Source: an uncultured virus (IMG/VR IMGVR_UViG_3300042691_048032) (Duplodnaviria > Heunggongvirae > Uroviricota > Caudoviricetes). Taken from it: 64,000 nucleotides of DNA. Within the stretch, counting starts at the first letter, position 1; every line of letters begins with the position of its first letter. The stretch lies in the IMG/VR virus record IMGVR_UViG_3300042691_048032; one strand, written 5' to 3'. Shown here one piece after another: positions 28,201-54,073 of the stretch. Under the pieces are notes generated by a model that made no database searches, had not been told where the DNA came from, and saw nothing but the letters and a program-made list of their open reading frames with translations. The translations under genes were made by a program, and so were the position numbers.

Positions 28201-31200
28201 GCTGGCCGCCCTGGACGCGGCGAAGAGCGGAGACGATGTCAAGAAGGCGTACCAGCAGATGGCGAACGCCGAGTCGCGGATAAGCAACCTCAAGGCGGTA
28301 CGGGACGCGTACGGCAACGCCCTCAAGGACTACAAGCAGAACACCGCCGTCCTGAACGTCGGCGGCGATTCGTACGACGTCCCGAAGAACACCGTCATCT
28401 CGACGGATCTGCCCAGCCTGGAGAAGGCCACCGACGTCTCGGCGGCCGTCGCGCCCATGTTCCCCGACGGAACCTCGTTGGGCATCTACAAGGATTCCTC
28501 GGGCCAGTACAGCATCATGAAGTTGGACGACGCCATCGCCGCCGGGATGCCGGCCCCCGAGGCGGTCTTCTCCAGCAACGGTGTCGGTGCGATCCCGACG
28601 GTCGACACGACGGCGTCGATGGATCTGAAGACCGCGCCCGGGATGCCCAAACTTCCGGACGGTTACAAGGGGACGCAGGTCCTCGGCGTCAACTCCTTCG
28701 ACGGAACGGCGGTCGGTCAGTACGTGCCGACACCGATGCTCCCGGACGGCTCCAACCCGCCGATCGACGAGAACCACCCCCTCGTGAAGGAGTGGGCGGC
28801 GAAGGTCTCCGACGGCACGGCAGACATCAGCGACGTCCCGAACGACCTCCTGAAGGAGGTCGTGTGGGCGAACACGCAGGGCGGCGGTGGCGGGAGTTCG
28901 GGTCGCTTCAAGCTGTTGTCGAAGGCGAGCGGTTACAACGACATCGGCAAGTCCCCCAAGGACCAGACACAGAGGTTCATGGACACGGCCACCGGCCAGA
29001 CGTTCGTCATCAAGAGCGCAACAAGGAACGACCAGGAGGGGATCCGAGAACTGTTCGGAAACCAGGTCATGCAGCTCCTCGGCTTCCCGTCATCGGGCGG
29101 GCGCACCGCCGGCCCGGTTGAGAAGTCGCCGAACAAGTTCCCGCCCGGACACCCAGAGCACGACCCCGAGGCGGAGCAGGTCGCCGTCCTCATCGAGTCA
29201 TCGGAGATGCTCTACGACGGCAAGCCGCTCGGACACGTCAGGAGCCTGCCGAAGGACGAGCGGGCCGACATCGTCGCAAGGCTTACGCCGGAGTCCGTTG
29301 GTGCCGGCCTGGTCATGGACTCCCTGTTCAGGTATTACGACCGACAGGAGGACAACTGGATCGCCGTCGAGTTGCCCGACGGGACGGTCGCGTACCACCC
29401 GATCGACCACGGCAACGCCTTTGGGCCGTTCAAGGGGCACAAGTTCTACGACAAGGACGGCAAGAAGCTCGGCAAGTCGCAGAGTTCGCCCGCCGACGAG
29501 GACAAGCTCGGACTCATGTTCTCGGGCCTCGACGGTGACGGCGTGTGGAACTTGGCGAAGGAGTCAATGACGACGCCGGAGCGGAGGTCCGCCTTCGCAG
29601 AGGGCGTACTCCACGCCGTGAGGAAGGCCGAGTCAACCGACTACGCGGAGGCCGGCGAGCGCCTCATCTCCGAGCAGAACCTGACCGGGCAGTTGGCCGA
29701 GAGGGTCAGGACATCCGCCAAGGAACTCGAAGGCAAGAAGGGGCGCCTCGACTCGTATGTCGACCCGATGCTCAGGGAGTTGGGCATGACCGACGACGAG
29801 ATCGCCTCGATCAGGGCGAAGGTTGACACGGACCTCGGCGGCGGCCTCGCCAAGGCCTCGCAGGCACCGAAGAAGGCCGTCCCCGCGTCGCCCGCGTCAA
29901 AGATGGTGTCGCCGACACCGATCAAGGGCGAGGAGGCCTTCGGGAACAGCCCGATCGCGGAGGGGGCCAAGACGGTCACGTCGTCGCTCGACAGCGCCGT
30001 CGCCCTGCCAGGCAGCGTCCACTACACGAGCGTCGGCGCCGGCAGGCAGACGAAGGACGGCGTCAGGTTCGTCTCTTGGGAGACGAACAAGCCCGGCGAG
30101 CAGGTCGTTTCGGCAGGCATGACCCTCGACAGCGAAACCGCCAAGAAGTTGGGGGCGGCACTCACGAACGGCGTTGACCTGCAGGGCAACCCGGTCGAGG
30201 TGCTCAAGTCCGGCCTTGCCCACATCGGCATCCAGCTGAAGGGCGGGAAGTGGACCTACGGGGACACCCCGCCCGACAGCGCCACGCAGGGCATCGGCGA
30301 CTACGGCCCCGCCGGCGAGAGGTTCGTCATCGCCAGGCTCCAGGACGGCACGATCGTCTCCGTCAACTACAGCAGCATCGACCCGAAGCTCGCCTCCGGC
30401 TCCTCGTACTCAACGAGGGACGTTGCCCAGGTCATCTACACCGACGGCAAGCCCTCCCCGGAAAGGGTTGCGTCCTCGCTCTCCGCGATGGGCGTTTCCG
30501 ACCTCGGTTACGCCGGCGAGAACGACTGGAAGGGGCGCGCGGCCGAACTTCTGGTGAGGACATACGACAACGAACTCGCCAACTCGGGCGATCAGATAGC
30601 CCAGAGGCTCGCCCGCATCGCCTCCGAGTACGGCGTCACCCTCAACGACGTCGAGCCCTACCACGACAGCATGGGTCGCCTGAGGTACCGCCTCACCGAG
30701 GAGGCCTGGGATCGGGTCGTCCAGAAGAAGCCCGGACTCGGCAAGACGACGCACATCGCCAAGTCCATGAACAACGTCACCGACGGCGCCAACGTCGTCC
30801 GCGTCATCACCACCGGGGGCATGCTCTCCAAGCAGGAGCAGGTCCTCAGCGGTTCCGGCCTCGTGTCGGGTGCGGCCGTGGGCGGCGGCGGCGTGGGGGC
30901 GTCCCCGGGTTCCGACCTGACGACGGGCGGGGGACTCGGTCTGTTCATGACGCCGTACTCGGGCGACAGCGACATGGGCGGCCCCAACGGCGTGCATGCG
31001 CAATCCATCAGCTACTGGGGCGGCAGCGCCGCCGTCCATGTCGTTTACGACGGGCAGGGGATGATGAGGGATCTCGGGTGGTGGGCGCACGGACCCAGCG
31101 ACGGCCCGTACGGTGCGCTCAACGCCGCCACATACCACGGGCAGGCTGCGCTGAACAACCCGCAGTACGGAGGCGACTCCATCACGGCGATGGACAAGGG

Positions 31201-31456
31201 AATGGTGTTCGAGTTCCTGCCGAACGGATCCGCCGCCCTCGACAATGCGATGGGCGTCATAGTCAGCGCAACGGTCAGGACACAGATCATCGACGCGCTG
31301 AAGGCAAAGGGCATCACGCAGGTCAACGGGATCCCGCTCGAGAAGTTCGTCGTCTCCAAGTCGGCGAAGAAGCAGTTGACGGAGATGCTCGGCCCGCGCT
31401 GGAAGAAGGACTACTTCGGCTCTGTCGGCACCAAGCAATCAACGGGTACGGTGTAG
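22298..31456 (+). CDS. 3052-aa polyvalent protein with HipA/PI3-PI4K-like kinase and putative C-terminal ADP-ribosyltransferase-like domain
   Basis: FVIKS...RELFGNQVMQLLG...DSLFRYYDRQEDNW...PIDHGNAF; C-terminal GGMLS...GLFMT...EFL. Confidence 0.75.
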   Translation: MRKSRVEFSVLNRKAAIEASSVALGVRMASRLSTGRTTAFSHSTKGVPFVHTEQIAFSSSRPSDRVHQERLEILVKSADAEIAQARLRVGSAEPQILLWPERDGSFDFKKLASIGRRGKRTAQGFDPNAEDADGDMLVQDGTPWERPKVPGASKRGRRKPGKTRVAVASGLERVADRIDEAAERRRSRREERGSLRERIAGRLEGAADRLDKKPGQKPKKVRRSPGEAFGDYLYGTDRVKPSRERPEEPGVADETVAPETPSAPEKPDAEVKPEKPKTPVEDVTTTATAKEKLPGRVIGKPDEDKSFVAVAARNASARKEDAYGNESQAASVVHVVENADGKFVAVDDERLSAMDGAKPLFTFRDGGLTHVDGEKRKKSGKTVTSEQVEAAPGWSMDETYKGSAIDRLSTLENTYFYKNGGKQFEEGENAYVIETSDGKFYIVDEEKMQALGVEPIRAEKTGRGEFIYGTEPKQDFVPRKVEEPKPVGEIPGEPPMEKPSLPDVAEDAKSPKSKKPKLKGKQDGKYKTEKNAAKRADQLSAEDGKTRHVVEAPGGGYAVVDQERLDAMGVEAVSTHNGKKIDTPVPQGEPEPGFVPPTVEETEDVPVNLPSFLQPKPGEQEAGAGGIKPPAKWDWDGTREYAQSAIDAAEELGKQGKLEESRAVAKEAKKKIAANYAADETTSESLSALLDELEYYSKANKSQVLAKLNEDDSPYRRWMDFDSSYSEDSSYDLDELNDALRNIEDARKQLSDLPNDEKQALDESYDDMINRLMDSEEKIGKRRDLEEILQEEEEIASAVKGPEAKPAPEKPDTAAGKPRKTIGLDTAKSVMEERISIIRDIAEMDGEDEEEITDQVKQAFTETSSYLDTIAANFDQIVFDTPGSVASWAERMRERADATPDPQEADAYKIVAEVLDDNPNMSSAVQVKIQISALSFEVMSMGDKYEPGEDLLGSGPTNESVTKKLDEGAVGLAETLNATMSGKYDDDTIESMQSTFKEAVYVLESLTPDEKAVMGDNYDAALEGAKNNIEILERLKGTGEDIGEVAKRFWEEKAEIPSQGGDNNKEQEVLSKLVTDGWLDENGDLKATTEQAQVMLNAYRSGLLDGSFPPETMAAVVALEKAIKAKADKDPLDGDSPLPYKTSQYIDVASLEEQEIPGSEGDMWDVEGLQEQFSEFMDLAKKDLISYWADPEKGAGGTVSLTKSMDDDQVEQEFLKTIAALEMAVNAGVATNPGGELPVAKLQRIKTHYHNFQVMAGRGKYSPENSPNLTPIDRFNHLSPSGQQSFLKAMENNFRGLAADDPDISEEEIDDVVREAMVAYNGILGKKGKAKKAKKAKPPAEQMKDSVVDGPSPEPAKPKAGGKSIRVGNGDTLSVLSPDEAEKAGVPKFDPNTEAKFPEGLIVGYIGGDDPDEDVSAAIIEAQLKGHQLFMPGDYEEGSLFASSFSTSDGKRVTVLLDNKHPVWESEGGLDAIFPNLYDQAGTGDVSNWVNLGELRQDKSPKKGSPLHGKTVADFDSSDVEAASVKFGPEAMELRAAIKALGEDPYSIFVDDATGMAEDLDKIMQGRFGPNGGVLVKTKDGMYHVVSRNDWQEITSGLSDDERGEIGEVVHSSKPESMNWALKKDTGTWSNPSKKLSDIDWDSIPKDEATEALKAFLENTTQGGVGQIAFGDSMKAGGISHPYGGLSGYTLQTLIDEHQMAFDQAGEESDSPNPSHPLNIHQDGRWGVFAFEVANQSDLPAAGKRPVVMRIGGKDLDFALKHPEVFGQPLLRYDRDTAQTLGNASDGTASASSFTGDLSSAVDAMFDDSVVGSELLKNAVAWRLKLDNKASSYGGGISSVEKVIGEAEDRLKAMRVTVDAAKKIAAGDLSKDEDSLTLDDLKPYLAQVSPDIEDPDAFVGKLKSTVVRLDVSNRYAANMRMAEQDGLETEIGLKDRLANNPKSAKDMVNEEKDVQNQLDAATKDLDSALAALDAAKSGDDVKKAYQQMANAESRISNLKAVRDAYGNALKDYKQNTAVLNVGGDSYDVPKNTVISTDLPSLEKATDVSAAVAPMFPDGTSLGIYKDSSGQYSIMKLDDAIAAGMPAPEAVFSSNGVGAIPTVDTTASMDLKTAPGMPKLPDGYKGTQVLGVNSFDGTAVGQYVPTPMLPDGSNPPIDENHPLVKEWAAKVSDGTADISDVPNDLLKEVVWANTQGGGGGSSGRFKLLSKASGYNDIGKSPKDQTQRFMDTATGQTFVIKSATRNDQEGIRELFGNQVMQLLGFPSSGGRTAGPVEKSPNKFPPGHPEHDPEAEQVAVLIESSEMLYDGKPLGHVRSLPKDERADIVARLTPESVGAGLVMDSLFRYYDRQEDNWIAVELPDGTVAYHPIDHGNAFGPFKGHKFYDKDGKKLGKSQSSPADEDKLGLMFSGLDGDGVWNLAKESMTTPERRSAFAEGVLHAVRKAESTDYAEAGERLISEQNLTGQLAERVRTSAKELEGKKGRLDSYVDPMLRELGMTDDEIASIRAKVDTDLGGGLAKASQAPKKAVPASPASKMVSPTPIKGEEAFGNSPIAEGAKTVTSSLDSAVALPGSVHYTSVGAGRQTKDGVRFVSWETNKPGEQVVSAGMTLDSETAKKLGAALTNGVDLQGNPVEVLKSGLAHIGIQLKGGKWTYGDTPPDSATQGIGDYGPAGERFVIARLQDGTIVSVNYSSIDPKLASGSSYSTRDVAQVIYTDGKPSPERVASSLSAMGVSDLGYAGENDWKGRAAELLVRTYDNELANSGDQIAQRLARIASEYGVTLNDVEPYHDSMGRLRYRLTEEAWDRVVQKKPGLGKTTHIAKSMNNVTDGANVVRVITTGGMLSKQEQVLSGSGLVSGAAVGGGGVGASPGSDLTTGGGLGLFMTPYSGDSDMGGPNGVHAQSISYWGGSAAVHVVYDGQGMMRDLGWWAHGPSDGPYGALNAATYHGQAALNNPQYGGDSITAMDKGMVFEFLPNGSAALDNAMGVIVSATVRTQIIDALKAKGITQVNGIPLEKFVVSKSAKKQLTEMLGPRWKKDYFGSVGTKQSTGTV

Positions 31457-31459
31457 GAA

Positions 31460-31912
31460 GTGGCGACGAAGAAGACTCTCGGCTTCAACGACATCGTTGA
31501 GCAGTACCAGCGCGTTGCCCCATGGCCCGCCCGCGTCGTCCAGCCCGAGGACGGGGACGACGAGAACTTCCCCGAGATGGTCGAGATGTGGGACTCGTCC
31601 CACCCCATGGTCTGTTACAGGCTGGACAGCCCAACCGCCAAGGATGTCATGACGACGGGGACGATCGTCGCTGGGAACAATGGCGATGCGTGGATGGAGA
31701 TGCCCGAGCTCAACGACAGCATCCGCAGAATGATCCGCCCGACCTCAATCTCCAAGAACCCCAACGGCCCGATCGTCATAATGACCCTCGACCGCGCGGA
31801 GGACCTTGCCATCAGGCCGCTCGTGGTCAGCGACGCCGTCTGGTTGATGGGCGAGCCCGTCAACAGCATGAAGGAACTGATCGACTACATAGGGGAGAAT
31901 GACGTCCTATGA
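31460..31912 (+). CDS. hypothetical protein (candidate immunity/partner)
   Basis: Starts 3 nt after the giant gene; acidic. Confidence 0.7.
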   Translation: MATKKTLGFNDIVEQYQRVAPWPARVVQPEDGDDENFPEMVEMWDSSHPMVCYRLDSPTAKDVMTTGTIVAGNNGDAWMEMPELNDSIRRMIRPTSISKNPNGPIVIMTLDRAEDLAIRPLVVSDAVWLMGEPVNSMKELIDYIGENDVL

Positions 31913-32211
31913 GCGACATGGTTGCCTACATCCACAACAGGAACGAAGGATCGCAGGATGGCCCACTGGCCATGATCGTGCTGGAGGGCGGTCGCCTGCA
32001 GTTCTTCGCCCCCGCCGGCTCCCCGTTCTCATCCAAGGTCAGGAGCCTGAACATCAGGTCGGTCGACCTCGACGAGGAAGAGGCCGCCGACTACTTCGAC
32101 ACGTACGTAGACAGGTGGAACGGACAGAACCTGCACGCCTCCGTCGCACCCCTCGAGGGGGCGGAGGCGAGGAAGGCCGAGGTCACCAAGGCCAAATGGA
32201 GGAAGTCGTGA
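31909..32211 (+). CDS. hypothetical protein (candidate immunity/antitoxin)
   Basis: ATGA and GTGA couplings at both ends. Confidence 0.7.
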   Translation: MSDMVAYIHNRNEGSQDGPLAMIVLEGGRLQFFAPAGSPFSSKVRSLNIRSVDLDEEEAADYFDTYVDRWNGQNLHASVAPLEGAEARKAEVTKAKWRKS

Positions 32212-35200
32212 AGCCCGTCGACCGGCGCGACGACCGCACCGCCCTCACGAGGGAGCAGGCCGTCGCCGCGGCGAGGTCAACGGGCTGCGAGGGGGCGCAC
32301 GAGGTGGAGGGCGGCTGGATGCCGTGTTCGTCGCCCGAGGAACTCAGGCGTGTTTCCGCCTCAGCGGAGAGCGACTCGTGGCTTGAGTCGTCCGTGTCCG
32401 ACAAGGGCGGGGTCTCGCCGTCGGGCAGGAGGCGCAAGAGGCGTGTCCGCCGATGGGAGAACCTGGTGGAGAGGTCCTACGGAATGACGGGCGTACCGGG
32501 TCTGGGTGTCGTTTCCGCCCCTCCCGCCAAGCCGACGTCGCCGATGGGCGACTCCTACGCCTCGGGACCGTCCGGGGTCATCACGCTGACGGCCGAGGGC
32601 AAGGCGTTCGCGCCTTTCACCCCAGAGGTCGGCGACCCCGACGTGTACACCTCCCCCGACGCGGCGAGGATGCGGGCTAGGCAGGTCGGCTGTACGGGGA
32701 TCAGGAGGTACACCACGCCGTCGGGAAGGCAGGCGTGGATGCCATGCACCACCGGTGTCACCTTCGACAGGAACATGGGATACGGGGCGTACTCTCGTAC
32801 GGGGAGCCGCCTCGAGTCGGCGAGGGTCGAGCGGGAGGTGCGCAGGCAACTGAGGGCCGCCGGGTTCAGCGGCAAGAAGTCCGCCAGAAGGCTCGCCGCT
32901 ACGCCGGCGAAGCCCTCGGAGAGGATCTCGGGCTCCTCCGTCAACAAGCCCGGCTCGTCCGCCTCGGCGAGGAGCGCATCGGGGATCGTGCTCTCGGCGG
33001 AGCAGCAGAAGGCACTCGTCGTCAAGGCGAGGGAGCACAACGCCAAGATGCGCGAGGCGGGCAAGCAGAAGTGGTCGAGGACGTCGTCCGCCACGCTCAA
33101 GGCAGTCATGAGGCGTGGCATGGGGGCGTTCAGCTCGTCCCACCGACCCGACGTCTCCTCCCGCCAGCAGTGGGGAATGGGCAGGGTGAACGCGTTCTTG
33201 GTGATGCTCGAGACGGGCAGGCCGAAGAACCCGAGATACACGACGGACAACGACCTCCTGCCCAAGGGCCACCCCTGGAAAGAACGAACGGCCGGTGGTC
33301 AGTCCACCAAGAAGGAGCCGATCGACGCAGACAGGGACGGGTGGGTCGACGAGGGCAAGCCGACGAGGAGGTTCGTCGGTTTCAGCCTCCTCGGTCGCGC
33401 CGCTAGGTCGGGCGCGGCGAGGGCGAGGACGATGGACGTCGCCGGCTCCGGCGGTTCGAGGCGCGGCAAGAGGACCGTCCGCGTCTCGGCTGGGGGCGGC
33501 ATCGCCGGCAGGGCAAGGGCTAGGAGGTTGTCCAGAGAGATCGAGGGCACGGTGTCGCGCATCTCCGAGGGGAGGACGACGCGCCCCGACTTCAAGCCGA
33601 GCATCACCGGGAACGTCCCGAAGAGGATCTCGTCCGACAGGCTGAGGAGGCTGAAGCCCCAACGCGTGAACCACAACTCGCTCGTCGCAACGCAGAGGGC
33701 CTACCCGAAGGCTCCGATGCCCGAGGGCGAACACAGGGTCACCACGCTGAAGGAGCTCGGCACCGCCCCCGGGGGCGGCATCGGCAGCACGTTCGACCAC
33801 TTCAAGATCGGCTCCGGGGAGATCCCCGCCGAGAGGAAGGCACTCCACGAGGAGATCATCCAGTCGATCCTGTTCGGCGGCGGCAAGTGGTCGCCGAAGA
33901 GGCAGGAGAAACCCGCCGTGTGGTTCATGGGCGGGGGGCCGGCCTCGGGGAAGACGTTCCTGAGGCAGGGCGGCTTCTTCGACACGCCATCCCGTGGCGA
34001 GGCGGTCCACCTCGACGCAGACGAGATCAAGCAGATGATCCCCGAGTTCGACTCGCTCGTCAAGGAACTCACGGACGCGGGCATGGACCCGACCGCCGCG
34101 GCGTCCGCCGTCCACTCCGAATCCACGTACATCCAGAGGCTTGCCATGGCCAGGGCCGCGGAGCAGGGCTTCCACATCGTCCTGGACAGCACGGGCGACG
34201 GTGGGCCGAAGAGCTTCCACTCCAAGATCGACGTCCTCAAGGCGGCCGGCTACAAGGTAAAGGGCAGGTTCGCAGACGTCTCGCTCGGGAAGGCGCTGTC
34301 GGACGCGAAGACCAGGCAGAAGGAAACGGGGCGCGGAGTACCCGACGACGTCGTCATCGACACCCACATCGACGTGGCAAGGGCGGTGCTGTACGGACTG
34401 CAGTACGACATCTTCGACGACCTGGAGATAGTCAGCAACGAAAACCACTCGTCCCCAACGACCATGGCCGCGTTCAAGGACGGCGTGCTCGTTGTCCACG
34501 ACCCCAAGAAGTGGTCAGAGTTCATCAGCAAGGCCAAACTCGCCTTCACCAATGACTACGAGAGCGACTACTTCGGTGGGGCGGACAGGGGCGCACGGGG
34601 CCGGTCGCCTCGCTCCAAGCCGAGGAAGACGAGGGTAAGTGGTGTCGACGGGGCGGACATGCTCGTCGCCGAGCCGGTTGAGTCTCTTGCTGACGCCCTC
34701 CCGAAGACGGGCATTGACTACCGCAAGGTGAAGGCAGTACCGGCGGAGAAAAGGGCCGCGATCGCGAAGGCCTACAATGGCCTGCCCGACAGGTCGCCGG
34801 AGGCGAAGGCCGCCTACGACGCCCTCGAGGCCGAGATCAGGGAGCAGTTCCGCATGTTGACCGATGACCTCGGGGTGGAGGTCCAGTTTGTCGACGAGGA
34901 CCCGTATGCCGACGCCGTGGAGATGATGGACGACGTGGAGAACAACGGTGTCCTGAAGGTGCTGAAGAGTTCTGCGACCGGTGGCCACCCGTATTGGTCG
35001 GACGAGACCAACGACATGTTCCGCGCCGTCCACGACGCCTTTGGGCATGCCGCCACGGGGCGCGGCTTTGACAGGCACGGCGAGGAGGCGGCCTACCAGG
35101 CCCACCGCTCCATGGTCAAGGACGCCCTGGCGCGTCTCGCCCTCGCCACGGAGACGAGGGGGCAGAACTCATGGCTCATCGAGAACGGTGAGTTCCCCGA

Positions 35201-35663
35201 GCAGAAGATGGCACTCCTCGACGAGGAACTCGCCAAGCAGGCCGGCGGTCTGCCGCAGATGCCGATGATGGCGGCCGTCCCCGACGTCGACCCCCAGCAA
35301 GAGGCCCAGTACGACGTCCCCGCAACGGCCGACCAAGACAACGCCTTCGAGAGCACGAGGTGCCACCACGTGTCCGGCGGCAGGAGGGTCGCAGCCACCG
35401 ATGCGGAGACCGACAGGTCGTCGCTCTACTCGTCGCTCGGCGAGGACGTCAGACTGTCCCCCGAGTCGAGGCAGAGGCTGTACGAGTTCGCCGCCCGCGG
35501 GGGTCAGACCCTCGAGGGGTCGGGCTTCGACGAATCCAACCCCAAGATCGCCGCGTACTTCAAGAGGGCGAAGAAATCGGTCAAGAAGATCGGCAAGGGC
35601 ATCGTGGCGGACATCCCGACCTCGGCGGTCGAGTCGGTCCCCGACACCATCGGTGCGGGATAG
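32208..35663 (+). CDS. multidomain protein: 2x WMPC (DUF3721-like), SHRP domain, zeta-toxin-like P-loop kinase, FRAVHD domain
   Basis: GC-x-G...WMPC twice; RRGMGAFSSSHRP...QWGMGRVNAFL; MGGGPASGKT...LDADEIK...VHSES...VLDSTG...GRGVP; NDMFRAVHDAFGH...GEE...ETRGQNS. Confidence 0.8.
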   Translation: MKPVDRRDDRTALTREQAVAAARSTGCEGAHEVEGGWMPCSSPEELRRVSASAESDSWLESSVSDKGGVSPSGRRRKRRVRRWENLVERSYGMTGVPGLGVVSAPPAKPTSPMGDSYASGPSGVITLTAEGKAFAPFTPEVGDPDVYTSPDAARMRARQVGCTGIRRYTTPSGRQAWMPCTTGVTFDRNMGYGAYSRTGSRLESARVEREVRRQLRAAGFSGKKSARRLAATPAKPSERISGSSVNKPGSSASARSASGIVLSAEQQKALVVKAREHNAKMREAGKQKWSRTSSATLKAVMRRGMGAFSSSHRPDVSSRQQWGMGRVNAFLVMLETGRPKNPRYTTDNDLLPKGHPWKERTAGGQSTKKEPIDADRDGWVDEGKPTRRFVGFSLLGRAARSGAARARTMDVAGSGGSRRGKRTVRVSAGGGIAGRARARRLSREIEGTVSRISEGRTTRPDFKPSITGNVPKRISSDRLRRLKPQRVNHNSLVATQRAYPKAPMPEGEHRVTTLKELGTAPGGGIGSTFDHFKIGSGEIPAERKALHEEIIQSILFGGGKWSPKRQEKPAVWFMGGGPASGKTFLRQGGFFDTPSRGEAVHLDADEIKQMIPEFDSLVKELTDAGMDPTAAASAVHSESTYIQRLAMARAAEQGFHIVLDSTGDGGPKSFHSKIDVLKAAGYKVKGRFADVSLGKALSDAKTRQKETGRGVPDDVVIDTHIDVARAVLYGLQYDIFDDLEIVSNENHSSPTTMAAFKDGVLVVHDPKKWSEFISKAKLAFTNDYESDYFGGADRGARGRSPRSKPRKTRVSGVDGADMLVAEPVESLADALPKTGIDYRKVKAVPAEKRAAIAKAYNGLPDRSPEAKAAYDALEAEIREQFRMLTDDLGVEVQFVDEDPYADAVEMMDDVENNGVLKVLKSSATGGHPYWSDETNDMFRAVHDAFGHAATGRGFDRHGEEAAYQAHRSMVKDALARLALATETRGQNSWLIENGEFPEQKMALLDEELAKQAGGLPQMPMMAAVPDVDPQQEAQYDVPATADQDNAFESTRCHHVSGGRRVAATDAETDRSSLYSSLGEDVRLSPESRQRLYEFAARGGQTLEGSGFDESNPKIAAYFKRAKKSVKKIGKGIVADIPTSAVESVPDTIGAG

Positions 35664-37610: not shown

Positions 37611-39526
37611 TTGACGGGGCAGGCCCCAGTCGCGCAGTCGTCGAGGTCGATGGACATCAGCCCCGCCTCCTCGGAGAGGGCGACGGAGAAGTCGATCTTG
37701 GAGAAGAGCTTCTCGTACTGCTCCTTGCTGACCTCCTCGTACGGGGGGAGCGGGAAGTTGTGGTCGGCGTGCAGGAGGAAGGAGACGCTCTTGACGCTGT
37801 TGTCGTAGTTCTCCTTGAGCCACTCCTTGATGGCGGGTAGTTCCTCCTTGCGGTAGTAGACGGTGACGGAGACGGCGTTGTCGGCCCAGTCCGTCTGCAT
37901 CCGCTTGACCCACTCGAGTTGCTCGACGGCCGTCATGTCGGCGGCGAGGACGGAACCCTCGGGCGACTGGCACGGGAACTCGACGACCCATCTGGTGTGG
38001 TCCTCGCGCCCGTCGAGCCCGACGTCGGGGACGACCTTGTAGCCGCGCTTGCGACACTTGTCCACGAGCGGATCGGCGGCGCCGAACCGCACCCTGCGGA
38101 TGTAGTACTTGGCGAAGGCGGGGTGGATGCCGGGGGTGACGCCGGGCAGGAGCGAGAGTGTTCCCGACGGCTGGACCGTGGTCAGCCTCACGGACGGCGT
38201 GATGCCGGTCTGCTCCGAGAACCACTCGTCGTACTGCCTCAGGGCGTCGTACGCCTCGGGGAGCCACGAGAGTTGCTCGGGGGTGCATTGGAGGACTCCG
38301 GTGACCGACTGCCCGAGCCTGCGGTTCTTGTGGACCATCTTGGTGGTCTTCTCGTACGGGTACTCCATGGAGGTGACCGCCTTCTGCACCTTGTACAGGA
38401 GGCGCGAGATCTCCAGCAGGTCGTCCTTGGAGTTGATGTTCGGGAGGAAGATGGTTGACAGGTTGCAGGACTCGCCGTCGGCGAGGCCGATCTCGGCGCA
38501 CGGGTTGAAGCCGTCGATTGTCGGGTCGGGTCGGTTCTCGCCGAGCCTGCCGACCTTCCTGGCCAGACCCCTGTTGATGAGTCCGTACGGCTCCCCCGAT
38601 CCGTCGTAGCCGCGCCACAACTCGGAGAGGATGTGGTCGTAGGAGTCGGCGTAGACGCTGTTGTTGCTGTTTGCCCTCCACGCCGGGACGGAGCCGCTGG
38701 ACCAGTTCTTGGCCCTGAGGAACAGGACGTCGTCGGGATCGCCAATGGCGATCTGGGCAGAACGGCGGGACGAGCCGGAGATGACGATCCTGCCGATGAT
38801 GTTGCAGATGTCGAGGACGTCGACCGACCTGAGCTTCTTGCCCGCGCGGGCCTCCATGACCTTGCAGATGTCCGTGATCCCGTCGATGAGCGCGCCCGGG
38901 CCGGAGGCGGTGCCGCCGAAGGTCTTGAGGGGTGCGCCGAACTCCCTGACGAGGATCGTCGAGTAGGTGAACGACTTGCCGGTGTAGAAGTACGACTTCA
39001 GCACGGAGTGGACGAGCTTGCGCCACCCCTGCCTGCTGTCGGGGACGATGATGTCGGCGTCGTTGGTGCGTTCGTGGGCGATGGACACCCCGGTCTTCAC
39101 CTTGGGCATCTCGTGGATGCGGGAACGCTCCACGGAGTAGCCCACACCGCCACCGAGCATCAGGTAGTCGAACAGCAGCTCGAAGTCCTCAATCTTCTCC
39201 ATGTTGACGAAGTAGCAGTTGTTGAGGCTGGTCCCGTTGTACTTGTTGACGAGCGGTGTACCGAGTTGCCAGAGTGCGCGCCCGGAGAGCGAACACCTGA
39301 GGTTGAAGATGTGGTCGAAGAGCCTCTCGGCCTCGTCGTCGGTCAGGTTCGCACCGATCTGGATGGCCCCGTTGATACAGCGCTCAATCGTCTCGGGCCA
39401 GGTCTCCTTCCTCCCCTCGACGTCGCGCGCGTACGTGCGCAGGTAGACGATCTCGCCGAGGCCACTGAAGCCCCACGGTGCTTGACGGTTGGTGTAGGAG
39501 GACACGAAGTCCTTGGAGAGTGCCAT
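37607..39526 (-). CDS. nrdJ: class II (AdoCbl-dependent) ribonucleoside-triphosphate reductase
   Basis: YLRTYAR, GRALW, LNNC, GGGVG, RRSAQIAIG, NPCAEI, CNL, TTVQPSGT, C-terminal CATGACP. Confidence 0.95.
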   Translation of the reverse strand: MALSKDFVSSYTNRQAPWGFSGLGEIVYLRTYARDVEGRKETWPETIERCINGAIQIGANLTDDEAERLFDHIFNLRCSLSGRALWQLGTPLVNKYNGTSLNNCYFVNMEKIEDFELLFDYLMLGGGVGYSVERSRIHEMPKVKTGVSIAHERTNDADIIVPDSRQGWRKLVHSVLKSYFYTGKSFTYSTILVREFGAPLKTFGGTASGPGALIDGITDICKVMEARAGKKLRSVDVLDICNIIGRIVISGSSRRSAQIAIGDPDDVLFLRAKNWSSGSVPAWRANSNNSVYADSYDHILSELWRGYDGSGEPYGLINRGLARKVGRLGENRPDPTIDGFNPCAEIGLADGESCNLSTIFLPNINSKDDLLEISRLLYKVQKAVTSMEYPYEKTTKMVHKNRRLGQSVTGVLQCTPEQLSWLPEAYDALRQYDEWFSEQTGITPSVRLTTVQPSGTLSLLPGVTPGIHPAFAKYYIRRVRFGAADPLVDKCRKRGYKVVPDVGLDGREDHTRWVVEFPCQSPEGSVLAADMTAVEQLEWVKRMQTDWADNAVSVTVYYRKEELPAIKEWLKENYDNSVKSVSFLLHADHNFPLPPYEEVSKEQYEKLFSKIDFSVALSEEAGLMSIDLDDCATGACPVK

Positions 39527-39572
39527 TGGCCTGCCATCCCTTGCTGTGTTGATTGTTGGTTTGCTTGTTTCG

Positions 39573-39896
39573 TCAGATAATGCCGAGTTCCTCGGCCTTG
39601 CTCTTCGGCATGTATGCCCCCGCCTTGGCGACGAGGACGCGGGTCTTCGTCATGGAGGAAAGGGCCACCTCCCGGTAGACGTCCCTCTCGACGCGGACCA
39701 TCTGCTCCTCCGCGGTCTTCTCCGCCAAGGGGGCAAACTGTACACGGATGCTGGGCGGTGGAGGGGCGTCGGGTGAATGGCTCACGCAGTCGCCCGTCGG
39801 GTGGCCGCAGATGATGCACGGCTGCCTGTCGGCCCTCAGTATCGAGACGCCGTCAAGGATCGTTTCCGATGATCCGGAGCCGCTGGAGGAGAACAT
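39573..39896 (-). CDS. hypothetical protein with CxxCGH...C motif
   Basis: CIICGHPTGDC; start uncertain (39896 or 39989). Confidence 0.65.
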   Translation of the reverse strand: MFSSSGSGSSETILDGVSILRADRQPCIICGHPTGDCVSHSPDAPPPPSIRVQFAPLAEKTAEEQMVRVERDVYREVALSSMTKTRVLVAKAGAYMPKSKAEELGII

Positions 39897-40060
39897 GACA
39901 CCGAACTTACCGCGGTCGCTCGCGCCATCGGAAACCGAAAAGTGGTAGTGTTCGCGACCGCTTTCGCGGCGGTGAATCATTGACGCCAAACGGCTTGCGA
40001 ACCTCCGCCCGGGTGCTATTGTCGGGGGGAGCAGTACCTACCTAACCACTGAGAGGTGAC

Positions 40061-41386
40061 ATGAACAGACCCAAGGTTCTTTCGCTCTTCAGCGGCGCCG
40101 GCGGACTAGATCTCGGGCTTGAGCGGGCCGGGATGGAAGTCGTCGCGCTGTGCGAGATCGACCCCAAGGCGAAGATGGTGCTGCGCAAGCACTGGCCACA
40201 CACCCACATCTATGACGACGTAAGAGAGGTAACCCGTGAACGACTCATCGCAGACGGCATCGCCCGCCCAGACATTGTGGCAGGAGGAAGTCCCTGTCAG
40301 GACCTCTCCGTTGCCGGACGTCGTAAGGGACTTGATGGATCTCGCTCAGGGCTCTTCTGGGAGCAGTGCCGGATCTCCGACGAAATCGGGGCGGACATCC
40401 TCTGGGAGAACGTCCCCGGCGCCCTATCTAGTAACAACGGAGCCGACTTCGCTGCCGTGCTGTGGGGAATCACAGGAGCACTCGTCGAGCTGCCCCCTAA
40501 GCAGAAGTGGGCCAAGTCCGGCGTCCTGGTGGGACCAAAGCGGACAGCCATCTGGCGTGTTGCCGATGCCCAACGTTTCGGAGTTCCCCAACGACGGCGT
40601 CGTATCTACGTTGTCGGATGTTCTGGAACCGTGGCACGAGGGCTTGCGCCGCTACTGCTTGAGTGCGCGGGCGGCCAAGGGAATCATCAGGCGGGCCGAG
40701 AGGCGGGGACGAGAGCTCCCCGAACCGTTGCGGACGGCTCTGACGACTCTAGCGGCCCAGGAGCCGGACGAGGAATCACCGACGGAGGACTGACCGCCTG
40801 GGTCAAATCCAAGCGGGCATCGTCCAACACGGACGACGACACGTGGCGCGACCAGCCGGTCAGCCCGACCCTCAACGCGTTCGACAACTCCGGGGAATCG
40901 CGGGCGACCGTGCTCACCGTCCAGGAGGGGGTGCTCCCGTTCACCGAGAACAGGTTCGCCCAGTACGCCGAGGGAGTCGGGGCGTTGCGCGCCTCGGGAG
41001 GGACGCTCGGCGGCGGGTCCGAGACATTGTTGATCGACAACGCAGGGGTTGCCGCCTGCCTGAGGAGCGGGGGCGACGGCGGTGTCCCATCCAGCAGGGG
41101 GGAGAACCTCGTCGTCCAGCAGGACCGGATCGCCGACACGATCGGCTTCTCGCACACCCAGGGTCTTGACCACCAAGCGTCGACCGAGGCCTTCCCGACG
41201 CTGAGGGCCGAGGGCGGCGGGCACGCCGTCATGTACGACACCAGGTCGACCGTCCTCTTCCAGCAGAACCAGCGGGACGAGGTCAGGATCATGCCGGGGT
41301 ACGCCGGCTCGCTCAACGCCGAGAACGGCATGCACAACACCAACTTTCTCGTGCAACCGCAAGAGGACGACGGTGCCGACATCTGA
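40061..41386 (+). CDS. C5 cytosine DNA methyltransferase, N-terminal catalytic part (motifs I-VIII) plus 5 TL-type modules
   Basis: LFSGAGG, GSPCQDLS, ENVPG, QRRRRIY; motifs IX/X absent. Confidence 0.9.
   Translation: MNRPKVLSLFSGAGGLDLGLERAGMEVVALCEIDPKAKMVLRKHWPHTHIYDDVREVTRERLIADGIARPDIVAGGSPCQDLSVAGRRKGLDGSRSGLFWEQCRISDEIGADILWENVPGALSSNNGADFAAVLWGITGALVELPPKQKWAKSGVLVGPKRTAIWRVADAQRFGVPQRRRRIYVVGCSGTVARGLAPLLLECAGGQGNHQAGREAGTRAPRTVADGSDDSSGPGAGRGITDGGLTAWVKSKRASSNTDDDTWRDQPVSPTLNAFDNSGESRATVLTVQEGVLPFTENRFAQYAEGVGALRASGGTLGGGSETLLIDNAGVAACLRSGGDGGVPSSRGENLVVQQDRIADTIGFSHTQGLDHQASTEAFPTLRAEGGGHAVMYDTRSTVLFQQNQRDEVRIMPGYAGSLNAENGMHNTNFLVQPQEDDGADI
40236..40793 (+). CDS. overprinted alternate-frame methyltransferase subunit (M.EcoHK31I beta-like)
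   Basis: GAGGT RBS before GTG; C-terminus STLSDVLE...RYCLSARAAKGIIRRAERRGRELPEPLRTAL. Confidence 0.7.
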   Translation: MNDSSQTASPAQTLWQEEVPVRTSPLPDVVRDLMDLAQGSSGSSAGSPTKSGRTSSGRTSPAPYLVTTEPTSLPCCGESQEHSSSCPLSRSGPSPASWWDQSGQPSGVLPMPNVSEFPNDGVVSTLSDVLEPWHEGLRRYCLSARAAKGIIRRAERRGRELPEPLRTALTTLAAQEPDEESPTED

Positions 41387-41993
41387 TGGGTACAACAACT
41401 GTTTCACACCGTGGCCGGACATGGGGCAGGCGATCCGCGTCTACGCAGACGACGGGCCTTCGCCGACCCTTTCCTCGCACCACGTACTCGTCCTGCATCG
41501 TGTGATCGTGGCCAGCGAAGAGAACGACCCGTCCCTCTTCAGGAGGCAGAACTTCGGTTCCTACGTGGAGAGCGAACACACACAGGCACTCCTCGCCCGC
41601 GACTACAAGGAGGGGACCGACCTCGTCGTCCAGCCCGTTTGGTGGGACGGAGGGGAAACCGCCCCGACCCTGACCGCAAAGGGCTCCGACCAGAGGATGC
41701 CCGACAAGGGGCAGTTGTTCGCGGTGCTGCAGGCCGTGCCGATCCAGGACGGGCGGGAGATCGAGAAGAAGCAGAACGGCTTCGGCATAGGCGAGCCGGG
41801 CGACCCGATGTACACGCTGGACACCACCGGCGCACAGGCGGTCGGTTACGTGCTGTGCTTCGACGGCAAGCGGAACGACGACTTCAGGATGTTCGAGGAC
41901 TACTACCCGACGCTGACGCAGATGATGGGTACGGGGGGCAACAATGTCCCCATGATCATCCACGACATCCCTGGCGACGGGGTGTCCCGATGA
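41373..41993 (+). CDS. protein made only of MTase TRD-like (TL) modules
   Basis: PSPTL, ALLARDYK, APTLTA, PMYTLDTTGAQAV, PTLTQMMGTGGNNVP; overlaps the upstream stop. Confidence 0.75.
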   Translation: MPTSDGYNNCFTPWPDMGQAIRVYADDGPSPTLSSHHVLVLHRVIVASEENDPSLFRRQNFGSYVESEHTQALLARDYKEGTDLVVQPVWWDGGETAPTLTAKGSDQRMPDKGQLFAVLQAVPIQDGREIEKKQNGFGIGEPGDPMYTLDTTGAQAVGYVLCFDGKRNDDFRMFEDYYPTLTQMMGTGGNNVPMIIHDIPGDGVSR

Positions 41994-42376
41994 CCAAATA
42001 CGAAAGGGTGCCGCCAGAGGGCGATGACGACACGGTCGCCGCCCTGACGGTCTCCGACCTGGTGAAGGGACAGGGCAACAACCAGTCCATGATGTCCGGC
42101 TACCTCCAGGTGTACGCACTCCCGCAGGCGTTCTCGGTCAGGGAGGATGCGAAGGCGAACAACTTCCACGCCACCCCGACGGACACCGCGCTGTGCGTGA
42201 ACGCCCTCAGGCCGTCACCGCAGTCGCACCACGCACAGATCTTCATCGTTCAGGCGGAAGTGCCGTGCCAAGTCGACGGCTCGCCCATCGCCTCCACGCT
42301 CAGGGGTTTCGGGCACGGCTGGCAGGGCCAGCACAACTCAACCAACGCAGTCGTACAGGATGCGGAGGAGGGGTGA
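41990..42376 (+). CDS. protein made only of MTase TRD-like (TL) modules
   Basis: ATGA coupling; VAALTV, ALRPSPQSHHAQ, IASTLRG. Confidence 0.75.
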   Translation: MTKYERVPPEGDDDTVAALTVSDLVKGQGNNQSMMSGYLQVYALPQAFSVREDAKANNFHATPTDTALCVNALRPSPQSHHAQIFIVQAEVPCQVDGSPIASTLRGFGHGWQGQHNSTNAVVQDAEEG

Positions 42377-43545
42377 GCGACGTTTACGGCTACGACGAGT
42401 ACAACGACTCCATCGCCGAAGAACTACACCATTCCCTGAGGGCCGGCACGAGGCAGTCCGTCGGTGTCGTACACCCACTCCCGGATGGCGTCAAGTTATT
42501 CGAGCCGATGTCGATGCGCGAGGAGAACTGGGCCGAGAGCGAGGTCAAGAACGCCCTCAGGGCCGGTGCCTCGAAGTCGTCCCACGCCGTCGTCTGCGAG
42601 GCCGTGGAGTCGGAGGAGCCGCAGGCGATCGCCTTCACCACGGAGCAGACCCCCAAGTTCTCGCCCGACCTGGCGTTCACCCTCACGGGCGGTTCGCCGT
42701 CGGGCGGTGGCCAGCCACAGTCCGTCATGCAGCGCGTCCAGATGCTCAACTTCCAGGGGAGCAAGGGGAACACCGTCGTGTCGGACGACGGGCAGTCATT
42801 CACCCTCAACGCTATGCACGGCCACGACGTCCACGTCATCGCCTACAACATCATGGGCGCACCGCCGAGGGAGCCAGACAGGCCCAACGGCGGCTACTAC
42901 GTCAACGAGACGCAGGTGACCAAGACGCTCGACGCCTTCGGCGACGGTCTCAACCCGAGCGTCAACCAGGGCGGCCTCGCCATAGTGACCAGGTCGTGGC
43001 CTGTGTCTTTCAGGGGAAGGGACGGAGGAATGACCGCAGAACAGGGCGAGGAGGGGATCGCCAACACGATCAGGGCTGGGCAGGGCGGGAGCGTCCGCCC
43101 CCATGTCCTGATCAGCGAAGGCCCCGTGGGCACGCTCACCACGGACATGGGTACGAAGATGCAGGTCAACAACCAGTCCGTCGACAGCAATCACCTCCAG
43201 GTCTTCGCGGAAATCGTGCAAGACCCGGCAGGAACGGGTACTATCGGCACGACGGCGGGGCTGCCCGCCATAGACATGATTGACAAAGAAGGGAATGACA
43301 TGACCGCAAACTCGAACGCACTGGTAGTGAGGCGCCTGACCCCGCTGGAATGTGAGTTGCTCATGGGATGGGAGCCGGGCTGGACCGAGGTCGGCATCAC
43401 CGAGAAGGGCGAACTCGTCGAGATGGCCGACACGCATCGCTACAGGATGTGCGGCAACGGTGTCGTCTCCAATGTCGCCCACTGGATCGGGGCAAGGTAT
43501 GTCGCGTCCAAGCAGGCCGCGGGTGAATCGGTCGGTTCGTGGTAG
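42373..43545 (+). CDS. C5 DNA methyltransferase, C-terminal part (about 8 TL modules plus motifs IX-X)
   Basis: GGAGGAG RBS and GTGA coupling; VRRLTPLECELLMGWEPGWT...RYRMCGNGV. Confidence 0.88.
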   Translation: MSDVYGYDEYNDSIAEELHHSLRAGTRQSVGVVHPLPDGVKLFEPMSMREENWAESEVKNALRAGASKSSHAVVCEAVESEEPQAIAFTTEQTPKFSPDLAFTLTGGSPSGGGQPQSVMQRVQMLNFQGSKGNTVVSDDGQSFTLNAMHGHDVHVIAYNIMGAPPREPDRPNGGYYVNETQVTKTLDAFGDGLNPSVNQGGLAIVTRSWPVSFRGRDGGMTAEQGEEGIANTIRAGQGGSVRPHVLISEGPVGTLTTDMGTKMQVNNQSVDSNHLQVFAEIVQDPAGTGTIGTTAGLPAIDMIDKEGNDMTANSNALVVRRLTPLECELLMGWEPGWTEVGITEKGELVEMADTHRYRMCGNGVVSNVAHWIGARYVASKQAAGESVGSW

Positions 43546-43751
43546 GCGAGGACGACATCGTCTCCCGGGCGGAGGCGAGGGTCAACCTGGTCCTGTGGGG
43601 AGACCCGAAGGACTCCTTCTCGGCGAGGGAACTCCTGTTTGTCGTTGACCTACCCGCACTGATTGCGGAGGTGAAGAGGCTTCGCACGGCACTCGAGGAA
43701 TCGTCTTCCGAGGTTGAGACCCTCAAGAGGTTCGCCTCTTACGGCGGTTAG
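43539..43751 (+). CDS. hypothetical protein
   Basis: DLPALIAEVKRLR motif common in small phage proteins. Confidence 0.6.
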   Translation: MVGEDDIVSRAEARVNLVLWGDPKDSFSARELLFVVDLPALIAEVKRLRTALEESSSEVETLKRFASYGG

Positions 43752-45928
43752 CGGACGTCGAACCTGAGCCTGCAGCGGCAGTTGATCGTCAGGTGTGGCG
43801 GGGCCGTCGGGTCGCCGGGGAATCTCAGTTCGTACTGTCCGACCTTGAACGCGTTTGCCAACGGGATCCTGTCGCCCTCGAGGAGGCGGTGCTCGGAGCG
43901 GACCTTCTGGTCCTTGCGCGTCACCCACCGCTTGCCGACCGCTCCCGCCTGCTTGCCGCCGAACCACATCCCGGCGTTGTAGGCGGTCTGTGCCTCGTGC
44001 TCGGCGATGACCCTCTTCCTCTTGGCGAGGAGGTGGGCGAAGATGGCGATGATTGCGGCCTTCAGGAGGACATGACCCTCGTCCTCGTTGTCCTTCATCA
44101 TGGCGACCGCCGTGATGATCGCCGCGGCGATCTCGTCCTTGGTTGAGTCGTTGGACTTCTCCACGCGCGCCATCTGATCGTTGACGTACTGGTCGACCTC
44201 TTCCTCGTCCGGCTCCATGGGCATCCCGGTGCGCTCGTTGGCCGTCCTCATGGCGTCCTCAACGATGGACTTGATCAGCGGCCTGATGTCTTCCCTCATC
44301 TGCCTGTTCCACACCTCGGTGTCGAACACCTGATCAACGACCAGGGATTCCGATGCCATCGCCTTGCGGGCCTTGGCCCCGGTGGCCTTCTCGAGCACGA
44401 CTCGCTGTTGCCTCTCGAAGAACCTCTCCAGGTTCCCGTCAAGGATCTCGGCCCACCTGTCGGCGTCCGCCAGCTCCTTCGTGTCCCAAGAGTCGGTCAT
44501 TGAGTTAGCGGGGGATTGCTTGACCCCCCACTGGCCGACGCTCGCCGAGGCGGAGAGCTCGGTGTCCGGCCCTTCCCCTGCTTCGGGTGCTTGGATCATC
44601 TCCTCGGGTGTCTCGGCCGCCGCCCCCTCGGGTGTTGTCTGGTCGGCGACCGGTGCCCCGGGTGGCATCGCCCCCGGCATACCGCCCATCTGCTGGGGTG
44701 GCTCGAGCTTCTTTTCCGTGTTGCCGATGGGGGCGAGGTTGGGGTTCGCCAGCATTGAGTCGGCGAGTTCCGACTCGACCTTCTTGCGGCCCGTCCCGTC
44801 CCTGTACTCGTTGGCGGTGATCAGGCCCGACGAGAACTCCTGCATGAGGTAGCGCTCGCGCTCGTTCTTGGCAATCTGCAACACCGGCACGTTGGAAACG
44901 TCGAAGTCGAAGTATAGGTCGGGGTGCAGGGCGTCCATGCCGCGGGCGAGCATCTCGAGGTGTTGTGGCATCGTCTCAAGCCAGAACACGCGGGTCTCCT
45001 CCACGGCGTTGGAGAACGTCCTGCCGGAGGCGTTGCCGATGACGGATTCGGGGACGCCGAAGGCGGAGAGGATCTCCTCCTTGGAGATCTGCCTCATCTC
45101 AATGTAGGAGGCGTCCCTCGGCGAAGCACCCGTGTCCACGTAGTCCACCCCGTCGGACGAGGCGATGACTGATGTGCCGCCGGCCTTGCCGATGTTCCCC
45201 CTGAAGCGGGACCTCAGCTCGTCCTTGTCGTCCTCGTCCATGTCGCCCTTGACGACGAGGAGTCCGCCCGGGCGACCGTCGTTGACGAGGAAGTTCCTGT
45301 TGTAGAACTTGGCGAGCGACTCGAGTTCCACGGCGATGCCCGCCGCCTCGAGCGGGGTCATCGACAGGTACGGGTCGAGGGGGTGCGGGTGCTTGAACCA
45401 CAGCACGTTCTCGGGCTCGACATACTGGATGGGCATGTTGGGGAGCCTGACCTCAAACCTCGAGACGAACTTTTTGGGGTCGGGGATGGGCGACGTGTAC
45501 TGCGGCGGCAGGAGGTGGATGGCGACCGGGTCGCCTCCCCTACCTCTGATGATCTCGACGAAACCGCCGCGGGTTGACGTGAGGAGCTGTGCCGACAGCC
45601 TGTAGCGGAAGGCGAAGGAGTCCTCGCCGGCGTTGGCCCTCCTGTTCAGGATGTCCAGCACGGCGGCGTCCTTGACGACCTTCCCGTCGGGCTTGTTCCC
45701 TTCCCTGCCCATGATTGGCAGGCGGGCCTGGTTCCCGGCGATGGCGTCAATGCAACGGTACACCCAGGTGACCTTCTTGACCCCGTCCCGATACACCCTC
45801 TCGATGTCCCAGGAGTCGTGGTATCCCCTCACCATGTAGGTGGGGTTGGTCGACACCGGGGCGCCGGCCGGTATCGCCTTGGAGCCCTCGTTGGAGAGGG
45901 ACTTATTGCTCCCGGAGTTCCAAGCCAT
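43748..45928 (-). CDS. portal protein fused to a MuF (minor head) domain
   Basis: VYRCIDAIA, PLEAA, NDGRPGGLL, AFGVP, TANEYR; C-terminal KRWVT...VRSEH...FPGDP...INCRC. Confidence 0.92.
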   Translation of the reverse strand: MAWNSGSNKSLSNEGSKAIPAGAPVSTNPTYMVRGYHDSWDIERVYRDGVKKVTWVYRCIDAIAGNQARLPIMGREGNKPDGKVVKDAAVLDILNRRANAGEDSFAFRYRLSAQLLTSTRGGFVEIIRGRGGDPVAIHLLPPQYTSPIPDPKKFVSRFEVRLPNMPIQYVEPENVLWFKHPHPLDPYLSMTPLEAAGIAVELESLAKFYNRNFLVNDGRPGGLLVVKGDMDEDDKDELRSRFRGNIGKAGGTSVIASSDGVDYVDTGASPRDASYIEMRQISKEEILSAFGVPESVIGNASGRTFSNAVEETRVFWLETMPQHLEMLARGMDALHPDLYFDFDVSNVPVLQIAKNERERYLMQEFSSGLITANEYRDGTGRKKVESELADSMLANPNLAPIGNTEKKLEPPQQMGGMPGAMPPGAPVADQTTPEGAAAETPEEMIQAPEAGEGPDTELSASASVGQWGVKQSPANSMTDSWDTKELADADRWAEILDGNLERFFERQQRVVLEKATGAKARKAMASESLVVDQVFDTEVWNRQMREDIRPLIKSIVEDAMRTANERTGMPMEPDEEEVDQYVNDQMARVEKSNDSTKDEIAAAIITAVAMMKDNEDEGHVLLKAAIIAIFAHLLAKRKRVIAEHEAQTAYNAGMWFGGKQAGAVGKRWVTRKDQKVRSEHRLLEGDRIPLANAFKVGQYELRFPGDPTAPPHLTINCRCRLRFDVR

Positions 45929-52714: not shown

Positions 52715-53071
52715 ATGAACATGAAGAACGGCAGGGGAACACCCATCAGTCAAGTCGAGGTAGAGGAGGAGATACTCCGCCTCGTCGGCGACTTGGAGTC
52801 AGAGACCGAGGCCTTCGAGACGCTGTCCCTCGACGCCGCGAAGAAGGAAGCCAGATTCAAGGGGGAGTGGGCGAAGGCATACCTGTCCGCCAGCGGCTCG
52901 ATCAAGGAGAGGGAGGCGTGGGCCGACTACCAGATCTCCGACGCCCACATGGACTGGAAGATCGCCGACGGCCTGCTCAGGGCGAAGAGGGAGAAGCTTG
53001 CTAGTATCAGGTCGTCAATCGACGCGCTCAGGACTCTGAACGCAAACGTCAGGGCGCAGGTGATGTCGTGA
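52715..53071 (+). CDS. coiled-coil hypothetical protein
   Basis: Helical; T/S-x-x-EREA-x-A...LRTLNAN. Confidence 0.65.
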   Translation: MNMKNGRGTPISQVEVEEEILRLVGDLESETEAFETLSLDAAKKEARFKGEWAKAYLSASGSIKEREAWADYQISDAHMDWKIADGLLRAKREKLASIRSSIDALRTLNANVRAQVMS

Positions 53072-53844: not shown

Positions 53845-53845
53845 C

Positions 53846-54073
53846 ATGTGCGAGAGTTGCGAATACTGCGGTGGCGAGAGGCACGGCCCGACCGCCTGCC
53901 CTCTGGTGAAGAGCGTTGAGTTCTTCCCCGACGGGAGTGTCAAGAAGGTGGAGAAGTACGACCGCAACGTCATGCCTCGGTTCGGCACCACGACGTCCGT
54001 GTCGGGGTGGCCATCCAACCTGACGGTGCGGCTGCAGGACGGGTCGCCCAGCGACAAGGAAGAACCGCATTGA
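53846..54073 (+). CDS. small Cys-rich hypothetical
   Basis: CEYCG...CPLVKSVEFFPDGSVKKVE. Confidence 0.55.
   Translation: MCESCEYCGGERHGPTACPLVKSVEFFPDGSVKKVEKYDRNVMPRFGTTTSVSGWPSNLTVRLQDGSPSDKEEPH

Follow-up and report, generated by a model that had tools for sequence, protein, structure and literature searches.

Described relatives and layout of the cassette

Bacillus phages encode multispecific cytosine-5 (C5) DNA methyltransferases, orphan enzymes with tandem target recognition domains (TRDs) between motifs VIII and IX (PMC12707154, PMC8936443) that protect against many restriction-modification systems (PMC12707154). Natural two-chain C5 enzymes and fragment complementation have also been documented (PMC3404938, PMC5944983). 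M.AquI is divided in its variable region, with motifs I-VIII together with a portion of that region on one chain and the rest with motifs IX-X on the other (PMC3404938), and M.EcoHK31I, which recognizes YGGCCR and requires both of its chains, has its second chain encoded within the catalytic gene in a different reading frame (PMC2836561). Here we analyzed a stretch of 64,000 nucleotides (nt) from an uncultured virus (IMG/VR record IMGVR_UViG_3300042691_048032; hereafter the window), which by its gene content is part of a tailed phage genome. At 40061..43545 it carries a cassette with the motifs of a C5 methyltransferase distributed over four consecutive genes, the first of which contains a further, nested gene. 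On balance we favor the reading that the cassette encodes an orphan multispecific five-chain C5 methyltransferase used in anti-restriction, with some of its recognition modules acting in trans.

The four plus-strand open reading frames (ORFs) reported in the initial annotation, of 441, 206, 128, and 390 amino acids (aa), were recovered, and profile matches bore out its assignment of motifs I-VIII to 40061-41386 and of motifs IX-X to the end of 42373-43545 only. Motifs I-X of PF00145, including the catalytic PC (motif IV), ENV (motif VI), and QxRxR (motif VIII), are thus all present, divided over genes 1 and 4. Residues 5-187 of gene 1 match Pfam DNA_methylase with an E-value of 2.6e-36. No restriction endonuclease gene was found among the neighbors of the cassette, which makes it an orphan, phage-borne system. 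Its genes and motifs are the following.

40061..41386, + strand: gene 1, the catalytic head (441 aa), with motifs I-VIII, a poorly conserved linker, and modules A1-A5
40236..40793, + strand: nested beta gene, in the +1 frame relative to gene 1, starting with GTG and encoding 185 aa
40283-40300, + strand: motif IV in gene 1
40403-40420, + strand: motif VI in gene 1
40586-40603, + strand: motif VIII in gene 1
41373..41993, + strand: gene 2, module-only (206 aa), with modules B1-B5, matched by neither the head nor the tail profile
41990..42376, + strand: gene 3, module-only (128 aa), with modules C1-C3
42373..43545, + strand: gene 4, the tail (390 aa), with modules D1-D7, a private linker, and motifs IX and X
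43330-43371, + strand: motif IX in gene 4
43441-43464, + strand: motif X in gene 4

The cassette shares its orphan phage origin and tandem TRD-type modules with M.SPRI, M.Phi3TI, SPbeta MtbP, and M.H2I. However, these are single chains with a few TRDs (two in the 443-aa SPbeta MtbP), whereas the window has 20 modules on four chains, two of which lack any core motif, and encodes the segment after motif VIII in another frame; the one polypeptide of the Bacillus phage type is here replaced by four genes and a nested one. M.AquI shares the split in the variable region, but it has two chains and one specificity, and no module-only or nested chain is described in the available part of its report (PMC3404938); the window adds three chains. 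M.EcoHK31I shares the nested +1 frame, but has motif IX on beta, motif X on alpha, and an adjoining restriction endonuclease, whereas both motifs lie on the tail gene of the window, which has no adjacent endonuclease. One relative (locus L059) combines the EcoHK31I layout, with motif IX on beta and motif X on alpha, with the same beta motif as the window.

Two cultured phages also share parts of the arrangement. Phage P1 Dmt has a B2-type module and a hidden +1-frame beta ORF like the window, but is one chain fused to a Dam domain. Mycobacteriophage Omega gp127/gp128, annotated as two methyltransferase genes, carries A5- and D6-type modules on the second gene and a hidden beta like that of the window; the two-gene split is therefore already known from the Omega annotation. 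Module-only genes and the 20-module array were seen in neither phage. Each ingredient of the system has a precedent, and the combination itself is new to the literature searched: module-only genes and a five-chain layout were not found in the full texts covered, a body of work outside which most subscription journals and old scans fall.

The nested beta gene

The "four coupled genes" of the initial annotation held as a conserved four-gene split, but the nested ORF, overlooked there, raises the number of chains to five. A GAGGT word lies 5 nt before its GTG start. In the region after motif VIII, the main frame has a ratio of nonsynonymous to synonymous differences (pN/pS) of 2.40 and 65% identity among close relatives, against 0.08 and 95% in the nested frame; selection thus acts on the nested frame where the main frame is not selected. 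Among 34 loci not chosen by the nested ORF, +1-frame stops in this region amount to 0.21 per 100 codons, compared with 3.0 and 2.8 in two control windows. Of 37 distinct loci not chosen by beta, among them the contig of the window itself, 35 contained the beta ORF, as did every one of the 50 loci with a head among a further 55 distinct loci. A scan for Shine-Dalgarno (SD) words gave 110 of 113 beta starts; it had no control, and we do not use it as evidence.

A published EcoHK31I primer (PMC2836561, supplement file 1) matched 81 Escherichia coli genomes. One of the matched loci encodes an alpha chain of 309 aa and, in the +1 frame, a beta chain of 176 aa; on inspection by eye, their ends correspond to the published primers. 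The beta family profile scored this EcoHK31I-type beta at 50.4 bits, the best of 1000 shuffles reaching 7.0; judged by this match, the nested ORF and the beta chain of M.EcoHK31I are homologues. The first 42 beta residues of EcoHK31I are reported to be dispensable in vitro (PMC2836561), which fits the finding that only the C-terminal part of beta is conserved here. Beta of the window lacks motif IX, the tail profile matching gene 4 only. Its conserved part shows a weak alignment with the SPbeta MtbP segment that comes after motif VIII, and among the best 150 of 5,087 representatives found with beta at E<=0.001, beta continues into the tail, often through modules, in 26. We infer that beta is the detached start of the variable region, and we think it likely that the enzyme needs it.

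Using the beta of the window as tblastn query gave no match in plasmids or phages, although the betas of relatives did match. Beta has no PHROGs or NCBIfam family, its ESM Atlas matches are unnamed clusters, and it is unannotated in the P1, Omega, and E. coli records examined. The unannotated +1-frame beta ORFs lie inside the methyltransferase genes of phage P1 (dmt, L140:8711-9202) and Omega (gp127, L212:1570-2049), which would be handy test systems for the nested gene. Annotation overlooks beta, and recoding of the catalytic gene in cloning would destroy it. With five chains in place of four, expression tests must retain the nested ORF.

Two other kinds of locus were seen during these searches. 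L137:3966-5135 and L138:4113-5129 belong to another two-frame type, in which the +1 frame is open for 338-389 codons and contains motif IX as well as short repeats of WPTP type; they are not matched by the beta profile. L022, L039, L055, L060, L063, and L089 have circularly permuted heads, with motif I after the tail, and retain the nested beta ORF.

Modules, relatives, and junctions

Twenty-one modules were delimited by eye and their homologues sought among 116 loci, the window included. The annotated count of about 21 in a 5+5+3+8 arrangement was corrected to 20 (5+5+3+7): 20 modules have homologues in other loci, while the eighth of gene 4 matches only the window and was rejected as a private linker. 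Modules A1-A5 have homologues in 17, 10, 8, 5, and 13 of the loci, respectively. Segments referred to below are as follows.

40790..41362, + strand: modules A1-A5 on the head chain, starting at 40790, 40925, 41039, 41123, and 41243
41388..41510, + strand: module B1, weakly homologous to the first TRD-type segment in SPbeta MtbP
41736..41852, + strand: module B4, homologous to the EcoHK31I-type alpha variable region as well as to the second TRD-type segment in SPbeta MtbP
42373-43215, + strand: modules D1-D7 of gene 4
43216-43320, + strand: private linker of gene 4, not a module

The modules are 28-48 aa long (median 40 aa) and mutually divergent. In M.HhaI, the TL dipeptide sits between two recognition loops (PMC2790894). 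A leave-one-family-out motif test, with anchors placed by eye, found a TL-type centre at p<0.05 in 16 of the 21 modules. Together with the homology of B4 and B1, this supports the proposed relationship of the short TL-type modules to known TRDs. Gene 2 is 35% identical to the SPbeta MtbP variable region over 62 aa (pairwise E-value 2e-6). B4 scored 29.4 bits on the second SPbeta MtbP segment and B1 12.2 bits on the first (0/300 shuffles as high in either case), and B4 scored 14.1 bits on the EcoHK31I-type alpha variable region (0/1000 shuffles as high). The last TRD of the SPbeta/phi3T enzymes reads GGCC; because B4 is homologous both to this TRD and to the alpha chain of the YGGCCR-specific EcoHK31I type, it is predicted to read a GGCC-containing site. 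GGCC occurs 662 times, which is above dinucleotide shuffles (516) and below a trinucleotide model (812). By extension from the homology of two of the 20 modules, each module may confer a specificity of its own.

Modules are gained and lost whole, and occur in other orders, in cis, in one-ORF relatives. C1 lies in gene 3 of the window, in gene 2 of L005, and in the head chain of L007, and A5 and D5 are present in some gene 2 variants. Of 113 proteins homologous to gene 2, 21 lack both head and tail, many being intact gene 2 variants with differing module sets. Compared with four relatives, and counting only modules that align at E<1e-8, pN/pS was 0.17 for the head modules, 0.26 for gene 2, 0.19 for gene 3, and 0.10 for the tail modules, with pS at 0.64-0.72; the module-only genes 2 and 3 are under purifying selection. 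No module is duplicated within the locus of the window, no shared recombination repeat was found, and the longest exact repeat among those listed is 15 nt. AlphaFold gave gene 2 a predicted local distance difference test score (pLDDT) of 33 and did not resolve its modules. The predicted fold of the one-ORF relative L084 resembles M.HhaI/M.HaeIII (best E-value 3e-18) with a confident core, falls below 50 over residues 188-229, and likewise does not resolve the placement of the modules. None of beta, gene 2, and gene 4 had a significant match when searched by sequence against the PDB.

The split is real in homologous phage loci, as the four-gene layout recurs in five further lineages (L001, L003, L005, L007, and L146). 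The heads of the first four are 70-82% identical, and all six four-gene lineages form one clade (support 100/95) in a tree of 84 heads, for which one in four of the beta-selected loci was retained and duplicates were removed. The positions of the breaks differ among lineages: L005 joins the first two gene 3 modules to gene 2 and has the third as a separate one-module gene. Head, modules, and tail form one ORF in 25 of 37 distinct loci chosen by head, gene 2, or gene 4, and in 74 of 77 chosen by beta; another 55 distinct loci, some of them shared with the first set, comprised 30 split, 17 one-ORF, and eight incomplete cases. Two-gene splits require at least seven changes on the head tree. The four-gene split is thus not a general rule, most distant relatives being one-ORF. 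Such homologues, which the initial annotation had counted against its proposal, are thus frequent in distant relatives; however, since the modules that they have in cis are the same, they favor a single enzyme in pieces.

Several split relatives show further peculiarities. L007 (5977-6276) and L148 (4915-5268) have, behind a complete tail, a second small gene that contains motifs IX-X and may encode an alternative tail subunit. At L009:4006-4446, and also in L010, the head and tail genes are separated by an unrelated ORF whose N-terminus is lipoprotein-like, so that the two halves are not directly coupled there. In the two-gene splits L152, L162-L165, L173-L175, L188, L195, and L198, the tail gene often starts at a TTG that overlaps the end of the head gene by 19 or 34 nt and falls among the codons for the last hydrophobic strand of the head.

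The annotated 14-nt, ATGA, and GTGA overlaps, two of them with a word resembling a ribosome-binding site, were confirmed as follows.

41373..41386, + strand: junction 1, with a GTG start codon lying 14 nt within gene 1 and a GAGG word upstream, bridged in 4/4 runs
41990..41993, + strand: junction 2, ATGA overlap without a clear SD word, bridged in 4/4 runs
42373..42376, + strand: junction 3, GTGA overlap with a purine-rich SD-like stretch upstream, bridged in 4/4 runs

A check in raw reads and in homologues had been suggested; beside the five related lineages, assembled contigs stood in for reads, and no single contig spans the whole stretch. The contigs came from four of 24 listed sequencing runs, representing four studies and none flagged as a possible source of the window; runs containing the stretch are mostly labelled freshwater. 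Gap-free contigs bridge all three junctions in each of the four runs, with no indels and 0-8 substitutions per piece. One contig of run X16 skips 42624-42732 of the window and has 11 different letters in its place, so that D3 is shortened in frame by a net 96 nt; this is a weak observation, the shorter flank being 30 letters long.

All 18 junctions of the six lineages have an in-frame start at -30..+15 relative to the stop (17.5% of 2000 control positions), and 13 of them have an SD-like word (1.4% of the controls). Every break falls between modules, never within one. Codon scores of genes 2, 3, and 4 were 0.25-0.26 per codon in frame, against about -0.6 out of frame, and no sigma-70-like promoter was found in 39500-43900. 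The frame shift required at one given junction varies among lineages (+1 or -1), a search of the 18 junctions revealed no slippery heptamer, and G/C tracts of at least 7 are lacking from the cassettes of the window and its five relatives. Taken together, restart codons with SD-like words, variable shifts, and the lack of slippery heptamers and long tracts fit translational coupling, not recoding or phase variation. Slippage-driven phase variation was rejected, as there are no homopolymer or repeat tracts at the frame breaks; the only two G6 runs of the window cassette lie inside modules, unlike the tracts of slippage-switched phase-variable methyltransferases. Unlike the window, L179:4562-4666 and L186:4559-4759 have G runs at breaks beside module A1, which could be slippage switches or sequencing errors.

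A proposed five-chain enzyme and its alternatives

In the mechanism that we propose, head (motifs I-VIII) and tail (motifs IX-X) would rebuild the catalytic core like the two M.AquI chains, and beta would complete it by supplying the segment that in other enzymes comes after motif VIII, at the start of the variable region. Some 20 interchangeable modules of 28-48 aa, with a TL-type centre between two variable loops, would alternate as the TRD, as those of the Bacillus phage enzymes do. Twelve of these would be tethered to the head or tail chain; the other eight, made as two separate translationally coupled proteins, would reach the core in trans if they act. The outcome would be 5-methylcytosine in a wide range of motifs, and with it protection from many restriction enzymes. 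That the cassette encodes an active C5 enzyme is very likely, and that the enzyme is multispecific is likely too. That the module-only chains add specificities is somewhat probable, because of the selection on them, their restart signals, and their equivalence to modules in cis. A more specific proposal, on which we consider the scales level, is that these catalysis-free proteins are plug-in TRD subunits docking in trans on a three-chain core of head, beta, and tail, with up to about 20 specificities gained or lost gene by gene.

Several points weigh against the favored five-chain reading. A known TRD is matched clearly by B4 and weakly by B1, and most modules match neither SPbeta segment. The comparison of beta with SPbeta MtbP in cis is weak (3.3 bits, 3/1000 shuffles as high). 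The E<1e-8 filter biases pN/pS downward, and synonymous sites are near saturation. Efficient M.SssI complementation appears to need an intact small domain (PMC3404938), and a published TRD acting from a chain without a core motif was not found in the literature searched. Finally, both activity and expression of the cassette are deduced from sequence.

The working enzyme could instead consist of head, beta, and tail with the 12 tethered modules, genes 2 and 3 being a store of spare modules that become active only after recombination or loss of a stop codon, and that meanwhile pass ribosomes to gene 4. C1, A5, and D5 do move between chains, splits and fusions recur on the head tree, and a tethered module would gain in local concentration. 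The unfused gene 2/3 modules are nevertheless under purifying selection in four comparisons with near-saturated synonymous divergence, and within-locus module duplicates, a shared recombination repeat, and G/C tracts of at least 7 are all lacking; we consider such a store unlikely. It is also conceivable that genes 2 and 3 are expressed and selected without directing methylation, their products shielding bound sites or scaffolding the module array. Selection and restart signals show only that these proteins matter, and every catalytic motif is absent from them. On the other hand, their module families are the same as those between motifs VIII and IX in one-ORF relatives, and both genes keep the ancestral place between head and tail, which leaves a shielding or scaffolding role decidedly improbable.

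Programmed frameshifting or ribosome bypass would yield one long chain, as the one-ORF relatives have. The SD-led starts found in place of slippery heptamers, and the lineage-dependent shift that would be needed, make this very improbable. A decaying gene or an assembly artefact, to which the weak score of the tail alone (Pfam E-value 0.0015, below cut-off) might point, was rejected as scarcely credible: independent contigs agree, the catalytic motifs are intact, six lineages share the layout, and purifying selection is seen in every piece.

If the module-only chains do act in trans, C5 specificity can be a separate, exchangeable subunit, and TRD swapping on one core could be tested by adding or removing single genes. 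In the plug-in arrangement, a Type II C5 enzyme would have its specificity separated from its catalysis in a Type I-like manner, and the 40-residue DNA-reading modules would be a natural parts library. From the twenty modules and their many variants, which differ in the first loop on a common scaffold, a recognition code and building blocks for programmable methylation would become available; action in trans would also show the extent of anti-restriction methylation in phages.

The cassette is flanked by ribonucleotide reductase/major head genes and by portal/terminase genes. The head gene region of the window also contains a 3052-aa ORF without a Pfam match (22298-31456) and a 1254-aa ORF with a zeta-like kinase domain (31899-35663). 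Two PAPS-reductase-like genes and a ParB-like gene, located at 646-1566 and 53068-55967, possibly constitute a second DNA modification system.

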